From: an uncultured Bacteroidales bacterium | GTDB lineage: Bacteria > Bacteroidota > Bacteroidia > Bacteroidales > ML635J-15 | DNA: 64,000 nucleotides | Direction: 5' to 3' | Assembly (NCBI GenBank): GCA_937982115.1 | Contig: CALJNE010000027.1 | Span: 462 to 64,461, forward strand | Position numbers and translations under genes: made by a program | The notes under the pieces: generated by a model | The model's input: only the letters and a program-made list of their open reading frames with translations | What the model was told of the DNA's origin: nothing | Database searches by the model: none | Shown: in pieces, positions 55,840-64,000 of the stretch | Layout: each line of letters opens with the position of its first letter | Numbering within the stretch: position 1 is the stretch's first letter

Positions 55840-56379
55840 TTATTTTTCTTTTATTCTTGTCAGGAAAAATTCGTCCTTTTGTTCTTTACCAAATTTATCT
55901 TTACCCGAAATGAATGCTTTTATACTATCCTTTGAGATATACTGATATACAATATATTGTGGATAATCATTGGCGGCATTGTGAAAATAATAAGTGCGAT
56001 TTTCGGATTTCACCAATTCAAAATTTACAGATCCTACAGTAACAACATCTTCTGCAAAACTGACAATGTAAAAAATTTTCCCTTCGCTATTTATTGAAAT
56101 ACGCAAAAATTCTTCAAACACAGTATCATTATCAGCAATCATATAACCCCTGCCTTTAAGACTTCCATCCTTATCCTGCCACCAAGATTCATAATAAAAA
56201 AATTCAGGATTTATATCCTGCCAGTCTCCTATTAACCAGGTCAAAGAATCAATGATAAAACTTGAAATCTTTATTTCATCTTGATTTTGATTTAAAGTCT
56301 CTTTTTTCCCGAAAAAATTACAGGACAAAACTAAAAACGAAATAAAAACAAAAACAAGATATCTAAATTTGAACTTCAT
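55840..56379 (-). CDS. DUF6265-like lipoprotein
   Basis: I moved the start to MKFKFRYLVFVFISFLVLSC (lipobox). The blocks WLIGDWQ and NDYPQYIVYQYISKDSIKAFISG resemble DUF6265 conserved blocks. Confidence 0.45.
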   Translation of the reverse strand: MKFKFRYLVFVFISFLVLSCNFFGKKETLNQNQDEIKISSFIIDSLTWLIGDWQDINPEFFYYESWWQDKDGSLKGRGYMIADNDTVFEEFLRISINSEGKIFYIVSFAEDVVTVGSVNFELVKSENRTYYFHNAANDYPQYIVYQYISKDSIKAFISGKDKFGKEQKDEFFLTRIKEK

Positions 56380-57763
56380 AACCTTTAAGAGGAATCTCAA
56401 TATTAGAAAAGCCTTCATTTTCGAGATAATTTTTGAAAAACTCAGCAGAAATTTGTTCTCCGTGAACAAGAAAAATTTTTTGCAATTTATCTTTATCCTG
56501 ACATTTAATATATTCTGTCATTTCTTCATAATCTGCATGACCGCTAAAAGATTCCAATTTTTTAATATCTGCCCGGATAATATGCTCTTCACCAAAGATG
56601 GAAATTTTATCTAAGCCTTGTTGCAAGCGGGCACCTAAGGTAGTTGGAGCACAATAACCTACAAAAAGAATTGTATTTTTAGGATTATCTATGCTATTGG
56701 CAATATGATGTTTTACCCTACCGGCTTCAGCCATACCGCTGGCAGAAATTATTACACAAGGTGAGTTTCTGTCATTTAACCTTTTTGATTCTACAATATC
56801 ACGCACATAATGCAATGTCGGGAAATTAAATGGATAGGGGTCTTCCTTAAGGCTTTCGGTTAGTTCCTCATTAAAGCATTCGGGATGCATCTTAAAAACT
56901 TCGGTAATATTAACAGAAAGCGGGCTATCAACAAAAATATCAATTTGAGGTAGAATCCCTTGATTATACCAATTGTTCAAAGTATTTACAATTTCTTGAG
57001 TTCGTCCAACACTAAAAGAAGGGATTATTAATTTGCCTTGTTTTTCAACGCAGGTATATTTCACAATATCTAAAAGAGCAAATTCTGATTCATGCTGAGT
57101 TTCGTGTTTCCGATCTCCGTAAGTAGATTCACAAATTAAAACATCAGCTTGTGGAAAAGCTGCCGGTGGTTTTAAAATTTTATTTTTAGGACGTCCGACA
57201 TCTCCTGTATAAGCAATATTTATCAGTCTGTCGTCTTCTTTTATAGTGATATATGCAACAGCACTGCCCAACATGTGTCCACTGTTGATAAACTTAACAG
57301 TAATATTTTGATCTATTTTAAATTTTCTGTCGTAGGCCACACCTATAAACAACTTCATGGCTTTTATAGCATCGTCGGCGGTGTATATTGGTTTTACAGG
57401 AGGGAGTCCTTTTTTTGCCAGTTTTTTGTTAAACCATTTTGTATCGTGTTCTTGTATATAACCACTATCTGCCAGCATCAAAGAACACAAATTTCGTGTT
57501 GCATCGGTACAAATTACAGAACCTTCAAAACCTTGCTTAAAAACGTAAGGAATAAGTCCTGAATGATCAATATGAGCATGTGTTAAAATTATATGATCAA
57601 TTTCTTTTGGGTCGAAACCTAAATCACGGTTTGCTTTATCAGTTTCCATTCCTTTGCCCTGAAACATTCCGCAATCTAGAAGAATTTTTTTTCCAAAAGA
57701 AGTTTCAATCAAGTGCTTACTTCCGGTTACTTCACCTGCTGCACCCAAAAAAGTGATTTTCAT
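56363..57763 (-). CDS. MBL-fold / beta-CASP RNA-metabolising hydrolase
   Basis: The N-terminus MKITFLGAAGEVTGSKHL, HAHIDHSG, a beta-CASP region and a C-terminal RMMBL-like end (SGHADYEE...VHGE) are present. Confidence 0.8.
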   Translation of the reverse strand: MKITFLGAAGEVTGSKHLIETSFGKKILLDCGMFQGKGMETDKANRDLGFDPKEIDHIILTHAHIDHSGLIPYVFKQGFEGSVICTDATRNLCSLMLADSGYIQEHDTKWFNKKLAKKGLPPVKPIYTADDAIKAMKLFIGVAYDRKFKIDQNITVKFINSGHMLGSAVAYITIKEDDRLINIAYTGDVGRPKNKILKPPAAFPQADVLICESTYGDRKHETQHESEFALLDIVKYTCVEKQGKLIIPSFSVGRTQEIVNTLNNWYNQGILPQIDIFVDSPLSVNITEVFKMHPECFNEELTESLKEDPYPFNFPTLHYVRDIVESKRLNDRNSPCVIISASGMAEAGRVKHHIANSIDNPKNTILFVGYCAPTTLGARLQQGLDKISIFGEEHIIRADIKKLESFSGHADYEEMTEYIKCQDKDKLQKIFLVHGEQISAEFFKNYLENEGFSNIEIPLKGYEVQI

Positions 57764-57774
57764 AAAAAAGATTT

Positions 57775-58149
57775 TTAGTTTTTATTTGATTTTAGTCTTT
57801 CCTGAAGGACCTGTAAAATATCAGAATTATTTGTCATTTCAAAAATCAGCTTTCGTCCATCTTTGCTTTCAATCTCAAATTTCAAATTTTTAAAACGATC
57901 CGTTTTATTAGTATGTGGTAATGGTTTTAAATTTGAAATATCTTTAAAAAGTAAATTTGATACTTTTCGAGCAGATGATATTTTAAATTTAAGCTTCGAG
58001 TTAATAAACGATAATGGTTTGAGATAAGTATTTTTAAATTCAATAAACAATTCATTTTCAGTTACATAAATATCAGAATCTCTTTCAACAAAACTATTTT
58101 TTTGCAAACTTGCCTTCTTTTGAATAATAACTTTTTCAAATCTTTCCAT
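57775..58149 (-). CDS. hypothetical protein (124 aa), divergent from the cytochrome operon
   Basis: I recognised no motif. I moved the start to the ATG (MERFEKV). Confidence 0.4.
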   Translation of the reverse strand: MERFEKVIIQKKASLQKNSFVERDSDIYVTENELFIEFKNTYLKPLSFINSKLKFKISSARKVSNLLFKDISNLKPLPHTNKTDRFKNLKFEIESKDGRKLIFEMTNNSDILQVLQERLKSNKN

Positions 58150-58229
58150 AACCCGAAAATGAGTTGACAAACTTATAAAATTATTTTTTCATAATTGCAA
58201 ATTTTGTTTTGAAAAATTCTAATTATTTT

Positions 58230-58330: not shown

Positions 58331-59923
58331 ATGGAAATATTTGAAAGTTTTAAAAAGACATTTCTCTTCATTTTTATTGTTATTTTCCCGCTAACCATTA
58401 TTACTTTAGGGTTTAGTAATTTCTTTGAAAAAGAGGGTAATTTAGGAGAGTTAAAAGAAAAATACTCCAGGAAGAAGATTTCATCTGTGGATCATTCAAA
58501 GTTTGAAATTTTACAAAAAGACTTCAAGGATCCTCATGAAGTTACTGAAGCTTGTTTAAGTTGCCATACAGAGAGAGGAAAGGAATTAATGAGTACAGCA
58601 CATTGGAATTGGGAAAGAGAAGAATATATCGAAGGCAGAGGCATCACCTATTTAGGTAAAAAGAATTTGATAAATAATTTCTGCACAGGAATAATGACAA
58701 ATGAACGTTCGTGTAATAAATGTCATGCAGGATTGGGATGGACAGATAAAAGTTTTGATTTCAACAATCAATTAAATATAGATTGTTTGGTTTGTCATGA
58801 TAAAACCGGCACTTACGAAAAAGCTACGGGTATGGGCGGACATCCACCGGTAGGAGAAGATGCTCCGGATTATAAAAATATAGTGGCAAACGTTGGAAGG
58901 CCAATGAAACATAATTGCGGATATTGTCATTTTAACGGAGGTGGAGGGAACAATGTTAAACATGGCGATCTTGAAACAGCTTTACTTAATTGCGACCGAA
59001 ATGTGGATGTTCACATGGCAAAAGATGGTCTTGATATGAACTGTGTTGATTGCCATCCTGCTGAAAATCATCAAATTAAAGGAAAATATTATGCAGTATC
59101 TTCAAGTAATAAGAATCGAGCATATTGCACAGATTGTCATAATCCTGCACCACACAAACAGCAAATTTTAAACGAACATACCATAAAAGTTGATTGTCGC
59201 ACTTGCCATATTCCGCATTATGCAAAAGTAAATCCGACAAAACTTTATTGGGACTGGTCAACTGCCGGAGCAATAAAAGATGGTGAAGGATACTCCGTAA
59301 CAGACAGTTTAGGCAGAGAAGTTTATACTTCAAAAAAAGGCACTTTCATTTGGGGGACAAATGTTCAGCCCGAATATGTATGGTTTAACGGAACTGCTGA
59401 TCATTTTTTGATTACAGACAAAATAGAAACCGACACCATTAATATTAATACTCTATTTGGGTCATACGTTGATCCTAATTCAAAGATTATACCCATAAAA
59501 ATTCATAAAGGAAAACAGCCTTACGATTTAAAATATAAAACGTTATTACAAGCCAAATTGTGGGCTCCCGAAAAAGGAGAAGGGGCATTTTGGATGGATT
59601 TGAATTGGGATATTGCATTAAAATTAGGAATGGAATACGTTGGTTTACCTTTTAGCGGGCAATACGGATTTATAAATACAAGAGCATATCTACCTGTAAG
59701 CCACATGGTATCAAAATCCGAAGACGCAGTTTCTTGTAAAGAATGTCATAATCGTAAAAACAGCCGACTTAAAAACGTACCCGGAGTTTACATCCCAGCT
59801 ACAAGCTATAATAAAAACATAAATATGGCCGGAACTGCCCTAATGTTATTATCATTACTAGGAGTTTTAGGACATGCCGCTCTAAGAATAAGAGCTTCAT
59901 ACAAAAAAAAAACATCAATTTAA
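58331..59923 (+). CDS. octaheme c-type cytochrome, tetrathionate-reductase (OTR) family-like
   Basis: Eight CxxCH motifs are present (CLSCH, CNKCH, CLVCH, CGYCH, CVDCH, CTDCH, CRTCH, CKECH), with no CxxCK. Size is 530 aa. There is an N-terminal hydrophobic anchor or signal and a C-terminal hydrophobic helix (AGTALMLLSLLGVLGHAAL). Multiheme status is certain; OTR-family membership is a by-eye call. Confidence 0.7.
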   Translation: MEIFESFKKTFLFIFIVIFPLTIITLGFSNFFEKEGNLGELKEKYSRKKISSVDHSKFEILQKDFKDPHEVTEACLSCHTERGKELMSTAHWNWEREEYIEGRGITYLGKKNLINNFCTGIMTNERSCNKCHAGLGWTDKSFDFNNQLNIDCLVCHDKTGTYEKATGMGGHPPVGEDAPDYKNIVANVGRPMKHNCGYCHFNGGGGNNVKHGDLETALLNCDRNVDVHMAKDGLDMNCVDCHPAENHQIKGKYYAVSSSNKNRAYCTDCHNPAPHKQQILNEHTIKVDCRTCHIPHYAKVNPTKLYWDWSTAGAIKDGEGYSVTDSLGREVYTSKKGTFIWGTNVQPEYVWFNGTADHFLITDKIETDTININTLFGSYVDPNSKIIPIKIHKGKQPYDLKYKTLLQAKLWAPEKGEGAFWMDLNWDIALKLGMEYVGLPFSGQYGFINTRAYLPVSHMVSKSEDAVSCKECHNRKNSRLKNVPGVYIPATSYNKNINMAGTALMLLSLLGVLGHAALRIRASYKKKTSI

Positions 59924-59934
59924 TTTTATAAGTC

Positions 59935-60603
59935 ATGAAAAAAGTATATATTTATAAAGTATTCGAAAGATTTTGGCACTGGACACAATCAATTTTGATA
60001 TTCACATTGGCATTAACCGGATTTGAAGTTAACGGAGCCTATGAAGTGTTAGGATACGAAACAGCAGTAAATGTTCATAATTTCTCAGCAATTTCACTTA
60101 TCATTCTGATAATTTTTGCGATATTCTGGCATTTTACCACAGGAGAATGGAGACAATACATTCCTACAAAGAAAAACATGAAAGCTCAGATAGAATATTA
60201 CATTACAGGAATTTTCCGCAATGCTCCTCACCCAACCAGAAAAACAATACTCAGTAAACTTAATCCTTTGCAAAGATTAACTTATCTGGCATTGAAAATT
60301 ATTTTGATACCTCTGATGGTAATAACCGGAATTTTATATATGCTATACAGATACGGTATGAATGGGGAGATTCATTCTTTAAAAATCGGTTCACTTGAGC
60401 CAATTGCACTATTGCATACTATAGGAGCATTTTTAATTTTGGCTTTTGTTATTGCCCATATATATCTAACCACAACCGGACATACTCCAACAAGTAATAT
60501 CAAAGCAATGCTTACAGGATGGGAAGAATTGGAAGACGATGATGATGAAAAAAAAGAAAATAATGTTAATACGGAAAAAAACGAAAAAAATGAAAATGAA
60601 TAA
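59935..60603 (+). CDS. membrane di-heme b-type cytochrome (PhsC/FdnI/HydC-like quinol-interacting subunit)
   Basis: The ERFWHWTQ start is typical of this family. It has four TM helices with conserved His (WHW, VHNF, WHF, LLHT, AHIY). The C-terminal tail DDDDEKKENNVNTEKNEKNENE is acidic and low-complexity. Confidence 0.75.
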   Translation: MKKVYIYKVFERFWHWTQSILIFTLALTGFEVNGAYEVLGYETAVNVHNFSAISLIILIIFAIFWHFTTGEWRQYIPTKKNMKAQIEYYITGIFRNAPHPTRKTILSKLNPLQRLTYLALKIILIPLMVITGILYMLYRYGMNGEIHSLKIGSLEPIALLHTIGAFLILAFVIAHIYLTTTGHTPTSNIKAMLTGWEELEDDDDEKKENNVNTEKNEKNENE

Positions 60604-61648
60604 ATTTTGGTTTGTTCTGGCACTTTTGCCGATTATGTTTTTTTCGAGTTGCAAAAATAAACCCGAAGAACAAGTAAAAGCTTCAGATAAATTTGAAGTT
60701 TTAATTAAATTTCTTGAAGAAAATAAAGATATTGTAAATTCTGAAGATGTACCTTTTTACGTGCATTCTGATGTTGTTTTTTCGGGACTGAAAAAGAATT
60801 TTTTGATAATTGACTTAAGAGATTCTGCTGATTTTACAAGCGGACATATAAATAATTCAATAAATGTTCTTCCTGAAAATATTCTTGATTATTTTGAAAA
60901 TAGGATAAATCCCCCGGTATTTGATACAATAGTTCTTGTGTGTAATACAGGGTTTAAATCAGGTTTTACAGCAATGTGTCTTAGATATTTAGGTTACAAT
61001 AATGTTTTCCCTTTAAAATACGGTCTAAGTGAATGGAATAAATCAATTGCAGAAACATATTGGTTACCTAATTTTAAAGACATTCCTTCTGAAGAAATAG
61101 ATACAGTAACTCATCCAAAAAATTCTCCCGGCAAATATCCGGAAATTATTTCATCTTTATCACAGCCCGAAGACATTCTATATGAAAGGGTAAGTCAATT
61201 ATTAAAAGGGAATTTTGAGGATTACTTTATTTCTTTAAAAGATATTTTAGGGAATGAAGATAATTATTATCTATTGTGTTATTGGCCACAAGAAAGATAT
61301 AACAAAGGACATCTTAAAGGTTCAGTGCAATATGAGCAAAAAAAATCATTAAGAACTAATGAATTCCTAAATACTTTACCAATTGAAAAAACTATTGTAG
61401 TTTATTGTTACTCAGGATTTCATTCAAGTCAGGTTACAGCATTTTTAAGAATTATCGGCTATAATGCAAAAGCATTAAGATACGGGAGTAATTCGTTTAT
61501 GTATAGTAAAATAAAAGAAGAAGAACCTTCGGGGCGATATTTTTCGGAAGATAATATTTTTGATTTTCCATTAAAAAGTAATGTTAAAACAGAACCGACG
61601 GGACCTGTTGAGCAAGGCAAAAAGACTAAACCAAAAGGAGGATGTTAA
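60590..61648 (+). CDS. lipoprotein with two rhodanese domains and a C-terminal ...KPKGGC tail
   Basis: MKMNKFWFVLALLPIMFFSSC (lipobox). There are two rhodanese modules with active-site loops VCNTGFKS and YCYSGFHSS, then a flexible linker ending GKKTKPKGGC-stop. The start overlaps the cytochrome b stop by 14 nt. Confidence 0.8.
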   Translation: MKMNKFWFVLALLPIMFFSSCKNKPEEQVKASDKFEVLIKFLEENKDIVNSEDVPFYVHSDVVFSGLKKNFLIIDLRDSADFTSGHINNSINVLPENILDYFENRINPPVFDTIVLVCNTGFKSGFTAMCLRYLGYNNVFPLKYGLSEWNKSIAETYWLPNFKDIPSEEIDTVTHPKNSPGKYPEIISSLSQPEDILYERVSQLLKGNFEDYFISLKDILGNEDNYYLLCYWPQERYNKGHLKGSVQYEQKKSLRTNEFLNTLPIEKTIVVYCYSGFHSSQVTAFLRIIGYNAKALRYGSNSFMYSKIKEEEPSGRYFSEDNIFDFPLKSNVKTEPTGPVEQGKKTKPKGGC

Positions 61649-62181
61649 AACTAAAATCAAACAATATGAATCAGCATGATAAAGAAATAAAACCTTACAT
61701 GAATCCTTATCTGGCAGGATTCTTACTTGGAGTATTACTATTGTTAACAATTTTTATTTCCGGACGAGGTCTTGGAGCAAGCGGAGCAGTAAAATCAGCC
61801 GTAATTGCGGCTGCTAACGTGATAAATAAGAATGCCCCTCAAATTTCTGATTTTTTCAAAACACAGGAAAACCCACTAAAATCCTGGTTAGTTTTTGAAG
61901 TGTTGGGAGTTATGTTTGGAGCTTTTCTATCCGGTTTTATATCCAACAGATTAACATGGAAAATTGATAAAGGGCCAGGAATAAAGAACCATACAAGAAT
62001 TATTTTTGCAGTTGTTGGTGGAGCTCTTTTTGGAATAGGTTCGCAATTCGGAAGGGGTTGTACATCAGGCGCTGCGTTAAGCGGAATGGCCGTTTTCTCT
62101 GCCGGAGGATTTCTAACAATGATGGCAATATTTGGAACCGGTTATGTTCTTGCATACTTTTTTAGAAAATTATGGTTATAA
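61642..62181 (+). CDS. YeeE/YedE family sulfur-compound transporter, half-size subunit
   Basis: NPYLAGFLLGVLLLLTIFISGRGLGASGA and the conserved FGRGCTSGAALSG motif are present, with about four TM helices. The true start may be the Met at 61666. Confidence 0.8.
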   Translation: MLKLKSNNMNQHDKEIKPYMNPYLAGFLLGVLLLLTIFISGRGLGASGAVKSAVIAAANVINKNAPQISDFFKTQENPLKSWLVFEVLGVMFGAFLSGFISNRLTWKIDKGPGIKNHTRIIFAVVGGALFGIGSQFGRGCTSGAALSGMAVFSAGGFLTMMAIFGTGYVLAYFFRKLWL

Positions 62182-62198: not shown

Positions 62199-63416
62199 AT
62201 GGGACCACTAATACCTCAAAATATTATAAGCGGAGATTTAAACTTTTTCTTTGCTTTTCTCATAGGCGTAGCGTTCGGGTATATTCTCGAACAGTCCGGA
62301 TTTTCTTCCTCACGTAAACTTGCTGGAGTTTTTTATGGATATGATTTTGTTGTTCTTAAAGTATTTTTTACAGCCGGAATAACAGCAGCAACAGGAGTTT
62401 TCTTCTTTAGTTATTTGGGTTGGCTTGATATGGATATGGTTTACGTAAATCCTCTATATGTTAACTCCGCGATTATTGGTGGAGTTATTATGGGTTTTGG
62501 TTTTATTATGGGAGGATTTTGCCCGGGAACAGGAATTGTTGGTGCTGTAATCGGAAAAATTGATGCCATATTTTTTGTTATAGGAATTTTTATCGGAGTC
62601 TTTATTTTTGGTTATTTCTTTAACTCTTTTGAACCAATATATCATGCAAATTATAAAGGCAGCATGTTTGTTCACGATGCTTTAGGAATGTCGCAATCCT
62701 GGTTTTTATTTGTGCTTGTAATTGTGGCAATTATAGCATTTATCATAACTCAAAAAATTCAAGACAAATCAACCCGTTTTAAAGAATTAATTTCAAACAC
62801 TCAAAGTTTAAAAGCAACATGGACTGCAGCATTTATCATAATTTTAGCTTTTATTGCTATTTTCTTACCAAAAGAAAGAGTTAGTTATCTTTCGGAAATA
62901 AGCTCTGAAAAACTTGCAGAAGAAATTCGCAATCCAAACCGAAAATTACCCCCTGAACGTATCGCATACAGCATAATACACAATCTTAACGACCTTGTCC
63001 TTGTTGATGTTCGTTCGCCTCAAGAATATTCAGAATTTCATTTTCCGGGAGCAATAAACGTTCCTGTCAATCAAATTTTAAAACCCGAATTTAAAGATAT
63101 TGCTTTTGCTGAAAATAAAAAAACAGTATTCTACTCAAATGGAGGACAACTTTCTGAAATAGCATGGTTAGCCGCTGCAAGAGCAGGAAAGAAAAATGTT
63201 TATGTTTTGGCAGGTGGTTTAAATAATTTTATTAAAGTTATTTTTGGAGATGTTCCGAAATCAGAAGTTAAAGATATAATGGAATTAAGCGACAGAAAAT
63301 TCATTGAATCAGCCAGAACATTTTTTATGGAAGGTGAATTATCAAAACGTCAGATAATTTCTTCTAAACCGGCATCAAACCCGGGAATAACAAAAAAAGC
63401 TAAAGGTGGATGTTAA
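62199..63416 (+). CDS. YeeE/YedE half-transporter fused to a Cys-less rhodanese domain, with a C-terminal ...KAKGGC tail
   Basis: The N-terminal half carries the GGFCPGTG motif and TM helices. The C-terminal half has a rhodanese fold (LVLVDVRSPQEYSEFHFPGAINVP...VFYSNGGQLS...LAGGLNNF) in which Ser replaces the catalytic Cys. The final residues are ITKKAKGGC-stop, and this is the only Cys in the soluble part. Confidence 0.8.
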   Translation: MGPLIPQNIISGDLNFFFAFLIGVAFGYILEQSGFSSSRKLAGVFYGYDFVVLKVFFTAGITAATGVFFFSYLGWLDMDMVYVNPLYVNSAIIGGVIMGFGFIMGGFCPGTGIVGAVIGKIDAIFFVIGIFIGVFIFGYFFNSFEPIYHANYKGSMFVHDALGMSQSWFLFVLVIVAIIAFIITQKIQDKSTRFKELISNTQSLKATWTAAFIIILAFIAIFLPKERVSYLSEISSEKLAEEIRNPNRKLPPERIAYSIIHNLNDLVLVDVRSPQEYSEFHFPGAINVPVNQILKPEFKDIAFAENKKTVFYSNGGQLSEIAWLAAARAGKKNVYVLAGGLNNFIKVIFGDVPKSEVKDIMELSDRKFIESARTFFMEGELSKRQIISSKPASNPGITKKAKGGC

Positions 63417-63428
63417 AATTTTACAAAT

Positions 63429-64000
63429 ATGAAAGACAATCAATTATTTAACGGATCACTCATATTTTTTGTTATAATTATTGGTGCTCTGCTTATTAGT
63501 GCCATTAACAAAAATTATAAAGGATATAAAATTTCAAATAATGAATTTATAAATCATTTTAGTTCTCCGGACCTTGTTATCAACTGTAAAGAATTAAACA
63601 AAATTCTGGATACAAAATCTGATGATTATTTAATTGTTGATATTCGCAATCAAAATCTTTATAAAGCTATAAATATTCCCGGCTCTGTAAATATTATACC
63701 AGAAAAAGCCTTTGAAAAAGAAACTATTAGATTCCTTAAAAAATCAAATAAAAACATCTTAATAACATCCGATTCTCAAGAACAAGCTACTATTTATGCA
63801 GCATATTTTACTAACCTTGGCATTAAAGGGCTGAAAATTATTTCCGGTTCACCAGAATTGTATATTCAACAAAAAAATAATCCATCTTACTCTTTCTATA
63901 ACTCTGAAAAACAATCCTTCTCATATAGAAACTTTATCAAACTTGAAGAAAAAGACGAATCAAAAGACCTTAACCCGATTATGCAAAGAGCCAAAGGCGG
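63429..64000 (+). CDS. membrane-anchored rhodanese-like protein, truncated by the window end at ...MQRAKGG
   Basis: My own translation gives MKDNQLFNGSLIFFVIIIGALLISAI (TM)...YLIVDIRNQNLYKAINIPGSVNI...NILITSDSQEQATIYAAYF..., open to position 64000. Ser occupies the active-site position. The last readable residues are A-K-G-G. Confidence 0.7.
   Translation, partial: MKDNQLFNGSLIFFVIIIGALLISAINKNYKGYKISNNEFINHFSSPDLVINCKELNKILDTKSDDYLIVDIRNQNLYKAINIPGSVNIIPEKAFEKETIRFLKKSNKNILITSDSQEQATIYAAYFTNLGIKGLKIISGSPELYIQQKNNPSYSFYNSEKQSFSYRNFIKLEEKDESKDLNPIMQRAKG

Follow-up and report, generated by a model that had tools for sequence, protein, structure and literature searches.

The window examined here, a 64,000-nucleotide stretch from the genome of an uncultured Bacteroidales bacterium (assembly GCA_937982115.1, contig CALJNE010000027.1, positions 462 to 64,461), ends in a tightly packed plus-strand operon of six genes, the first of which encodes an octaheme cytochrome of the Otr family. 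Next come genes for a membrane cytochrome b, a lipoprotein that has two rhodanese domains, the C-terminal half of a split channel of the YeeE/YedE family, a fusion protein that joins the N-terminal half of that channel to a rhodanese fold, and a third rhodanese protein anchored by a single transmembrane helix (Table 1). The fusion and the third protein lack the catalytic Cys in the active-site loop and carry a Cys at the tip of a C-terminal tail instead, and this arrangement is conserved in a large family of proteins that are encoded next to enzymes of anaerobic sulfur respiration. We suggest that these two proteins may be sulfur carriers that operate by means of the tail.

Rhodaneses are defined by a Cys at the start of the active-site loop, and domains without it are usually dismissed as inactive. 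Both the fusion and the third protein match the rhodanese family PF00581 above its gathering score, and their AlphaFold models, when compared with the PDB by Foldseek, matched rhodaneses: the top matches of the fusion domain, with a predicted local distance difference test score (pLDDT) mostly above 90, were all of this kind, as were all matches of the third protein, with a fold pLDDT of 85 to 96 and TM-scores of up to 0.81. In phmmer alignments to solved rhodaneses, the Ser of the fusion loop VFY-S-NGGQLS lines up with the catalytic Cys of 3d1p, of 2k0z, and of each of the two 6mxv domains, and the Cys of the lipoprotein loop LV-C-NTGFKS (C135) lines up with that of 6mxv. The third protein gave only a gapped pairwise alignment, and family alignments were therefore compared profile to profile; by hhalign, Ser114 of its loop LIT-S-DSQEQA occupies the column of Ser313 of the fusion (probability, 99.8%) and the columns of C135 and C290 of the lipoprotein (98 to 99.4%). 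In the models, Ser313 and Ser114 are each placed as the first residue past the central beta strand, ahead of the helix. A misplaced active-site column is ruled out by the four independent alignments together with the secondary structure of the models. No Cys lies near the loop of the third protein, and its Cys53, considered as an alternative functional residue, was rejected as it is missing from all more distant orthologs; the fusion contains two Cys residues in total, Cys108 in the membrane and the terminal Cys405. An earlier interpretation made from the letters of the window (the sequence-only reading) had held that the fusion and the last protein lack the loop Cys, that both domains of the lipoprotein keep it (LV-C-NTGFKS and VY-C-YSGFHS), and that the soluble part of the fusion is free of Cys save for its last residue; these statements were borne out under proper alignment, in which the loop column of the two proteins holds Ser and no Cys.

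None of approximately 250 orthologs has a Cys at the loop position, which is occupied by Ser, Gly, Ala, or, rarely, Asp, and nearly all of them end in Gly-Gly-Cys (GGC). In the fusion family (121 sequences), the loop column holds Ser in 85 cases, Gly in 33, and Ala in 3, the terminal Cys is present in 120 and Cys108 in all 121, and a GGC end is found in 117 of the 120 best homologs. A scan of one genome per species placed relatives in at least 532 species, belonging to the Bacteroidota, Ignavibacteriota, Kapaibacteria, and other groups. The homolog search for the third protein yielded four close relatives only, and its family set was therefore gathered from the neighbor genes of related loci, which were extracted from 80 genome-contig loci of several phyla. 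Among these locus-derived sets, 55 fused proteins have Ser (25), Gly (14), Ala (13), or Asp (3) in the loop column, none of 50 standalone rhodaneses has a loop Cys, and the third-protein family (30 sequences) has Ala (14), Ser (10), or Gly (6) there and a terminal Cys without exception; this family evolves fast, and across 26 of its orthologs, at 19 to 34% identity, invariance is limited to L6, G190, G191, and C192. Within the 2.69-Mb genome, 3 of 2742 open reading frames (ORFs) of at least 100 codons end in GGC, against an expectation of 0.12, and all three lie in the operon. Chance or gene decay is ruled out by this excess and by the persistence of the pattern down to 19% identity, and the data support the conclusion that the two Cys-less rhodanese folds are conserved proteins rather than decayed genes.

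The window stops 7 nucleotides short of the end of the last stop codon, but the contig supplies the remainder of the third protein (last codon to 64004, stop codon 64005-64007; full length, 192 residues, ending ...MQRAKGGC), and its RAKGGC end means that all three rhodanese proteins are tailed. The tails are predicted to be disordered: in the models, the mean pLDDT of the fusion falls through 63, 47, and 39 in the last three 10-residue blocks and is below 50 for residues 393 to 405, and that of the third protein is 43 to 62 over residues 155 to 192. The sequence-only reading had paired a Ser at the loop with the tail and had named the terminal Cys as the sole candidate redox residue; among orthologs, Ser, Gly, or Ala at the loop goes with the GGC tail, and the terminal residue is the only conserved soluble Cys of both Cys-less proteins and sits on the disordered arm. 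All three proteins end in KGGC, and a SoxY-type feature, Gly-Gly-Cys on a flexible C-terminal peptide, is thus present, GGC being the functional motif of the SoxY arm (PMC11237559). In a few orthologs one residue follows the tail Cys (GGCS in L014, L020, L048, L059, and L073; GGCG in L066), so the Cys need not be the last residue and a free carboxylate is dispensable, as in the GGCGG end of SoxY. Selenocysteine at this position was considered and discarded: no ortholog ORF ends in Gly-Gly followed directly by a stop codon, and every tail has a Cys codon.

Table 1. Genes, domains, and key residues of the operon at the end of the window
Feature	Position	Strand	Basis or remark
Otr-family octaheme c-type cytochrome	58331..59923	+	TIGR04315, 560 bits vs cutoff of 375; PF11783 match
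Membrane cytochrome b, PhsC/FdnI-like	59935..60603	+	PF01292, E=2e-25
Two-rhodanese-domain lipoprotein	60590..61648	+	PF00581 twice; signal peptide and lipobox MKMNKFWFVLALLPIMFFSS followed by C
Lipoprotein loop Cys C135	60941-60943	+	Numbered from ORF start 60539
Lipoprotein loop Cys C290	61406-61408	+	Numbered from ORF start 60539
Lipoprotein tail, KPKGGC	61637-61645	+	Codons of GGC
Split YeeE/YedE channel, C-terminal half	61642..62181	+	PF04143, profile positions 169-309
Cys140 of C-terminal channel half	62059-62061	+	Motif GRGCTSG
Fusion protein, 405 amino acids	62199-63416	+	PF04143 N-half and PF00581
Fusion: split YeeE/YedE channel, N-terminal half, with two extra transmembrane helices	62199..62870	+	PF04143, profile positions 6-196
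Cys108 of fusion, in membrane	62520-62522	+	Motif GGFCPG
Fusion: rhodanese-fold domain, residues 225-383	62871..63347	+	PF00581, E=6e-17
Ser313 of fusion, in catalytic-Cys position	63135-63137	+	
Fusion: flexible C-terminal arm, end KAKGGC	63348..63416	+	GGC, 63405-63413; stop codon, 63414-63416
Third (last) protein: N-terminal transmembrane helix, Cys-less rhodanese fold, disordered tail of ~40 residues	63429..64000 in window	+	PF00581, E=3e-9
Ser114 of third protein	63768-63770	+	

The coordinates of all named residues were confirmed by retranslation. The first gene product scores above the curated cutoff of TIGR04315 and is on that basis assigned to the Otr family; a search for its homologs returned the same subfamily only, at 54% identity or more, and no TIGR04315 member was present in 14 control genomes. 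This cytochrome has a hydrophobic helix at each end, one a putative N-terminal anchor and the other C-terminal (...LMLLSLLGVLGHAALRIRASYKKK), and a similar C-terminal helix occurs in the Otr cytochromes of three translated related loci (L001, L002, and L035); the Shewanella Otr of solved structure is soluble. The top NCBIfam match of the cytochrome b is the thiosulfate reductase cytochrome b subunit, at a score below the cutoff of that model, and the protein is presumed to be the quinol-oxidizing partner of the Otr-type cytochrome. Its C terminus (60484-60603) is of low complexity and made up of acidic residues, Asn, and Lys; this region runs over the upstream part of the lipoprotein reading frame, and the ATG at 60590 is the likely true start of that gene. 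Upstream of the operon lie a divergent 131-amino-acid ORF without a Pfam match (57775-58170, minus strand) and, adjoining it, a beta-CASP/MBL RNase J-like gene (56363-57763); the contig ends approximately 300 nucleotides past the operon and contains no more ORFs there.

The core module of the related loci is a split YeeE channel with a Cys-less GGC-rhodanese, and it occurs in two forms, fused and unfused, behind two unrelated reductases. In 38 of the 80 loci the fused form follows Otr and cytochrome b, and of these 20 have the lipoprotein and 18 have none nearby; in another 27 the unfused form lies behind a PhsA-like molybdoenzyme that has iron-sulfur and NrfD subunits, and 26 of those are without a lipoprotein nearby. 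These PhsA-like enzymes score 461 to 476 bits, below the equivalog cutoff of 694; the partner in the window is Otr. The tail varies with the reductase: the net charge of the 12 residues before GGC is +3.9 in Psr-linked arms, which are polybasic, and +1.1 in Otr-linked arms, which are near neutral (Mann-Whitney p=1e-8, kinship ignored), and both types of arm coexist in genomes with both cassettes. In three loci (L014, L020, and L073), a Psr-type cassette with a polybasic GGCS arm lies directly upstream of an Otr-type cassette with near-neutral arms on one contig.

One related cluster has an alginate-export-like beta-barrel of the outer membrane (PF13372; L002:4781-6028) inserted between cytochrome b and the lipoprotein, and the sulfur substrate might enter through it. 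In a Cyclonatronaceae relative (L004:2727-4817 and L005:1973-4036), the third rhodanese gene is immediately followed by genes of System II cytochrome c maturation (CcsA-like PF01578 and ResB-like). In a Kapaibacterium (L089:1441-3855, minus strand), a di-rhodanese lipoprotein that has two Cys residues and no GGC tail adjoins a different multiheme cytochrome of 456 amino acids, and this may be a separate rhodanese-cytochrome pairing.

The GGC end, being short, C-terminal, and invariant, following a polybasic run in Psr-linked arms, and bearing a superficial likeness to polybasic-plus-Cys membrane-targeting ends, might be read as a processing, sorting, or lipidation signal or as a cofactor or metal ligand for reductase maturation. 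We regard this as very improbable, since all three proteins are already anchored by a transmembrane helix or a lipobox, the GGCS and GGCG variants exist, one tail type serves a heme enzyme and a molybdenum enzyme that have no common cofactor, and no conserved candidate modifying enzyme was found in the clusters inspected (six related loci).

Published work already joins some of these components. Periplasmic rhodanese lipoproteins and YeeE are known from Psr operons (PMC12142623), and in lucinid symbionts a divergent soxY-soxZ pair adjoins otr (PMC11237559), an arrangement that independently connects Otr with an arm carrier. In the full-text literature, octaheme cytochromes or Psr were found in association with rhodaneses and YeeE, and nothing was found on Cys-less rhodaneses with a GGC tail; NCBIfam holds no model specific for these proteins. 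SoxY and SoxZ families were not listed among the neighbors in six related loci, and no protein of the window matched the SoxY family of Pfam (PF13501).

The channel of the window fits a split YeeE/YedE (PF04143), with complementary profile halves and one conserved Cys loop in each. Cys140 of the C-terminal half is present in 82 of 82 orthologs and is equivalent to the periplasm-side Cys293 in the YeeE structure (PMC7449682), and the import of zero-valent sulfur by split YedE1E2 makes use of a pair of essential Cys residues (PMC10812762). In YeeE, which is N-out/C-in, each half has four transmembrane helices, and a ninth helix that joins the halves reverses the topology (PMC7449682); the AlphaFold model of the fusion has six predicted transmembrane helices, namely the four of the first half, the reversing helix, and one more, the last being preceded by a Lys/Arg-rich loop. 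From the YeeE topology and this helix count, the rhodanese domain of the fusion, for which the sequence-only reading had left the choice between periplasm and cytoplasm to topology prediction, is placed on the periplasmic side, which it probably faces. The unfused rhodaneses have a Lys-rich N terminus followed by a transmembrane helix, an orientation that agrees with periplasmic placement. A periplasmic location is strongly indicated for the fusion and the lipoprotein and weakly for the third protein.

The tail Cys could be a thiol-disulfide redox or gating residue that forms a mixed disulfide with Cys140 or with another arm and thereby opens, closes, or regenerates the channel, given that a channel half bears one of the arms and that exactly two Cys residues of the channel are invariant. 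A Cys-Cys disulfide has been seen in YeeE crystals (PMC7449682), and the three arms of one operon could pair mutually. However, the constant placement of the module behind a sulfur-compound reductase is left unexplained by such a role, as is the shift in tail charge with the reductase while the channel is unchanged, and the GGC context is that of a known carrier arm; we consider a redox or gating function unlikely.

The sequence-only reading had envisaged a division of labor, with catalytic rhodanese domains on the lipoprotein and Cys-less folds that serve as docking or scaffold modules and present a tail Cys. In its obligatory form, the loop Cys residues of the lipoprotein would strip the substrate of its sulfane sulfur, and the Cys-less proteins would be passive scaffolds whose tails only receive sulfur from the lipoprotein. 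The two kinds of protein are indeed encoded together in the window, and the lipoprotein loops are canonical and conserved (among 29 sequences of the family, the Cys of domain 1 is present in 23 and that of domain 2 in 26). However, 24 to 25 of these 29 lipoproteins have a GGC tail of their own, so there is no clean split between catalysts and carriers, and the lipoprotein gene is not nearby in 18 of the 38 Otr-type and 26 of the 27 Psr-type loci. Five Otr-type genomes without a local lipoprotein were followed further: three yielded no homolog anywhere, a fourth has a weak single-domain match only (E 7.6e-7), and the fifth has a homolog elsewhere that is without the GGC tail. This tail-less homolog outside the system implies that the GGC tail marks membership of the system and not a rhodanese subfamily, and the frequent lack of the lipoprotein implies that this protein is an optional addition to a core formed by the arm-bearing Cys-less rhodanese. 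Thus, the conserved Cys-less folds with a tail Cys survive from the original proposal, whereas the part assigned to the lipoprotein, itself GGC-tailed and dispensable, is not supported in the form given, and an obligatory division of labor appears about as unlikely as a gating role for the tail.

An invariant GGC Cys on a flexible, probably periplasmic peptide, encoded beside a sulfur cytochrome enzyme and resembling the SoxY arm, leads us to favor rhodanese-scaffolded carriers with the reductase and the channel as clients. We suggest, with a probability of roughly 0.55, that the fusion and the third protein are membrane-tethered, dead rhodanese folds acting as SoxY-like sulfur-carrier arms; without a SoxY fold and without SoxZ, they would be functional analogs and not members of the SoxY family. 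The working residue would have left the loop for the end of a disordered C-terminal arm, in the context hydrophobic-x-Gly-Gly-Cys, where its thiolate would covalently take up sulfur from polysulfide, elemental sulfur, thiosulfate, or tetrathionate, giving a loaded form that may be a persulfide or polysulfide or an S-thiosulfonate. The arm would then move this sulfur over tens of angstroms within the periplasm, possibly to the active site of the upstream quinol-driven reductase (the Otr-type cytochrome and its cytochrome b here, a Psr/Phs-type molybdoenzyme in relatives) and possibly to Cys140 on the periplasmic side of the split channel, which has one of the arms fused to it. The role of the Cys-less fold would be to anchor the arm and give it its orientation, its intact, Cys-free loop may cradle the anionic adduct, and the two-Cys lipoprotein, which is also arm bearing, could be an optional extra collector.

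Several considerations weigh against this proposal. The covalent loading of the tail Cys with sulfur and the direction of transfer, whether to the reductase or toward import, are steps that we infer. The likeness to SoxY is confined to a three-residue motif on an unrelated fold, and the contrast in tail charge, which takes no account of phylogeny, coincides with that between fused and unfused architectures. The orientation of the third protein is a further difficulty, as its family has a mean of 1.4 Lys and Arg residues on the N side of the membrane helix and 2.1 on the C side, values that slightly favor a cytoplasmic domain.

This last point would suit a two-sided relay, in which the third protein is N-out/C-in and its arm, cytoplasmic like YeeD/TusA, is fed by the arm of the fusion through the two Cys residues of the channel. 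By our own tally, Lys and Arg are more numerous after than before the transmembrane helix in 16 of 30 orthologs, the window protein among them (1 versus 3), and Ikei et al. 2024 reportedly found that YeeE needs a cytoplasmic Cys partner. The difference in net charge, by contrast, favors an N-in orientation with a periplasmic domain in approximately 17 of 28 comparisons (also our own tally), the three second standalone copies that were inspected in Psr-type loci are all N-in, and the third protein is lacking from many Otr-type clusters; a relay of this kind seems to us less probable still than gating or an obligatory division of labor. A periplasmic carrier arm on both Cys-less proteins is the arrangement that we prefer.

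An extension of the carrier-arm proposal, which we offer tentatively and think more apt to be wrong than right, is that the Otr-type and the associated Psr/Phs-type enzymes reduce protein-bound sulfur on the GGC arm and not free ions. The persulfide, polysulfide, or thiosulfonate held on the dead-rhodanese arm would then be the substrate of the reductase, and, if so, the operon would mirror the Sox system in the reductive direction and would reveal the natural substrate of Otr.

The cellular role of Otr has been obscure since its structure was solved in 2004, and if the arm does carry sulfur, then these proteins provide a concrete candidate for its physiological substrate. They would also constitute a second, independently evolved swinging-arm sulfur carrier besides SoxY and would explain how insoluble or scarce sulfur species are delivered to periplasmic reductases and to a YeeE-type channel. 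In this large family the loop Cys is consistently lost and the Cys at the tail tip retained, beside enzymes of anaerobic sulfur respiration that are of importance in sediments, guts, and soda lakes, and the genes concerned are at present named merely "YeeE/YedE family protein" or "rhodanese-like domain-containing protein."

In summary, the system shares features with four groups of known proteins and differs from each. Inactive rhodanese homology domains, such as the N-terminal domains of tandem rhodaneses and the CH2 domains of MAP-kinase phosphatases, likewise have another residue in place of the catalytic Cys and are regarded as docking or regulatory modules, but they are not known to have a compensating Cys, whereas the polypeptides described here each retain an invariant one. 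Sud of Wolinella succinogenes is a periplasmic rhodanese that feeds polysulfide reductase, holding sulfane sulfur on one Cys and passing it to the enzyme, and together with the single-domain rhodaneses Str, PspE, and GlpE it offers a parallel in fold and possibly in location and in association with a polysulfide reductase; Sud is, however, soluble and has the canonical loop Cys, whereas the proteins described here are membrane tethered and have Ser, Gly, or Ala at the loop and their Cys 20 to 40 residues away on a disordered tail. The channel recalls PmpAB/YedE1E2 and YeeE(TsuA)-YeeD(TsuB), with its two-gene pair of half-channels and one essential Cys per half, and those systems are implicated in the passage of thiosulfate or zero-valent sulfur over the inner membrane with the aid of a Cys-bearing partner; the known partner, YeeD, is a cytoplasmic TusA-like protein with a loop Cys, and known split channels have neither a rhodanese domain nor a GGC arm. 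SoxY differs in being a beta-sandwich in an oxidative pathway, whereas here a rhodanese alpha/beta fold without a PF13501 match or a SoxZ partner is anchored in the membrane or joined to a channel half in a reductive context (Otr and Psr/Phs). In common with SoxY, the proteins are probably periplasmic, have a single putative carrier Cys on a flexible C-terminal Gly-Gly-Cys peptide that follows a hydrophobic residue, in rare GGCG and GGCS tails run past that Cys as SoxY does in GGCGG, and have a c-type cytochrome enzyme as their putative client, as SoxY has SoxAX.

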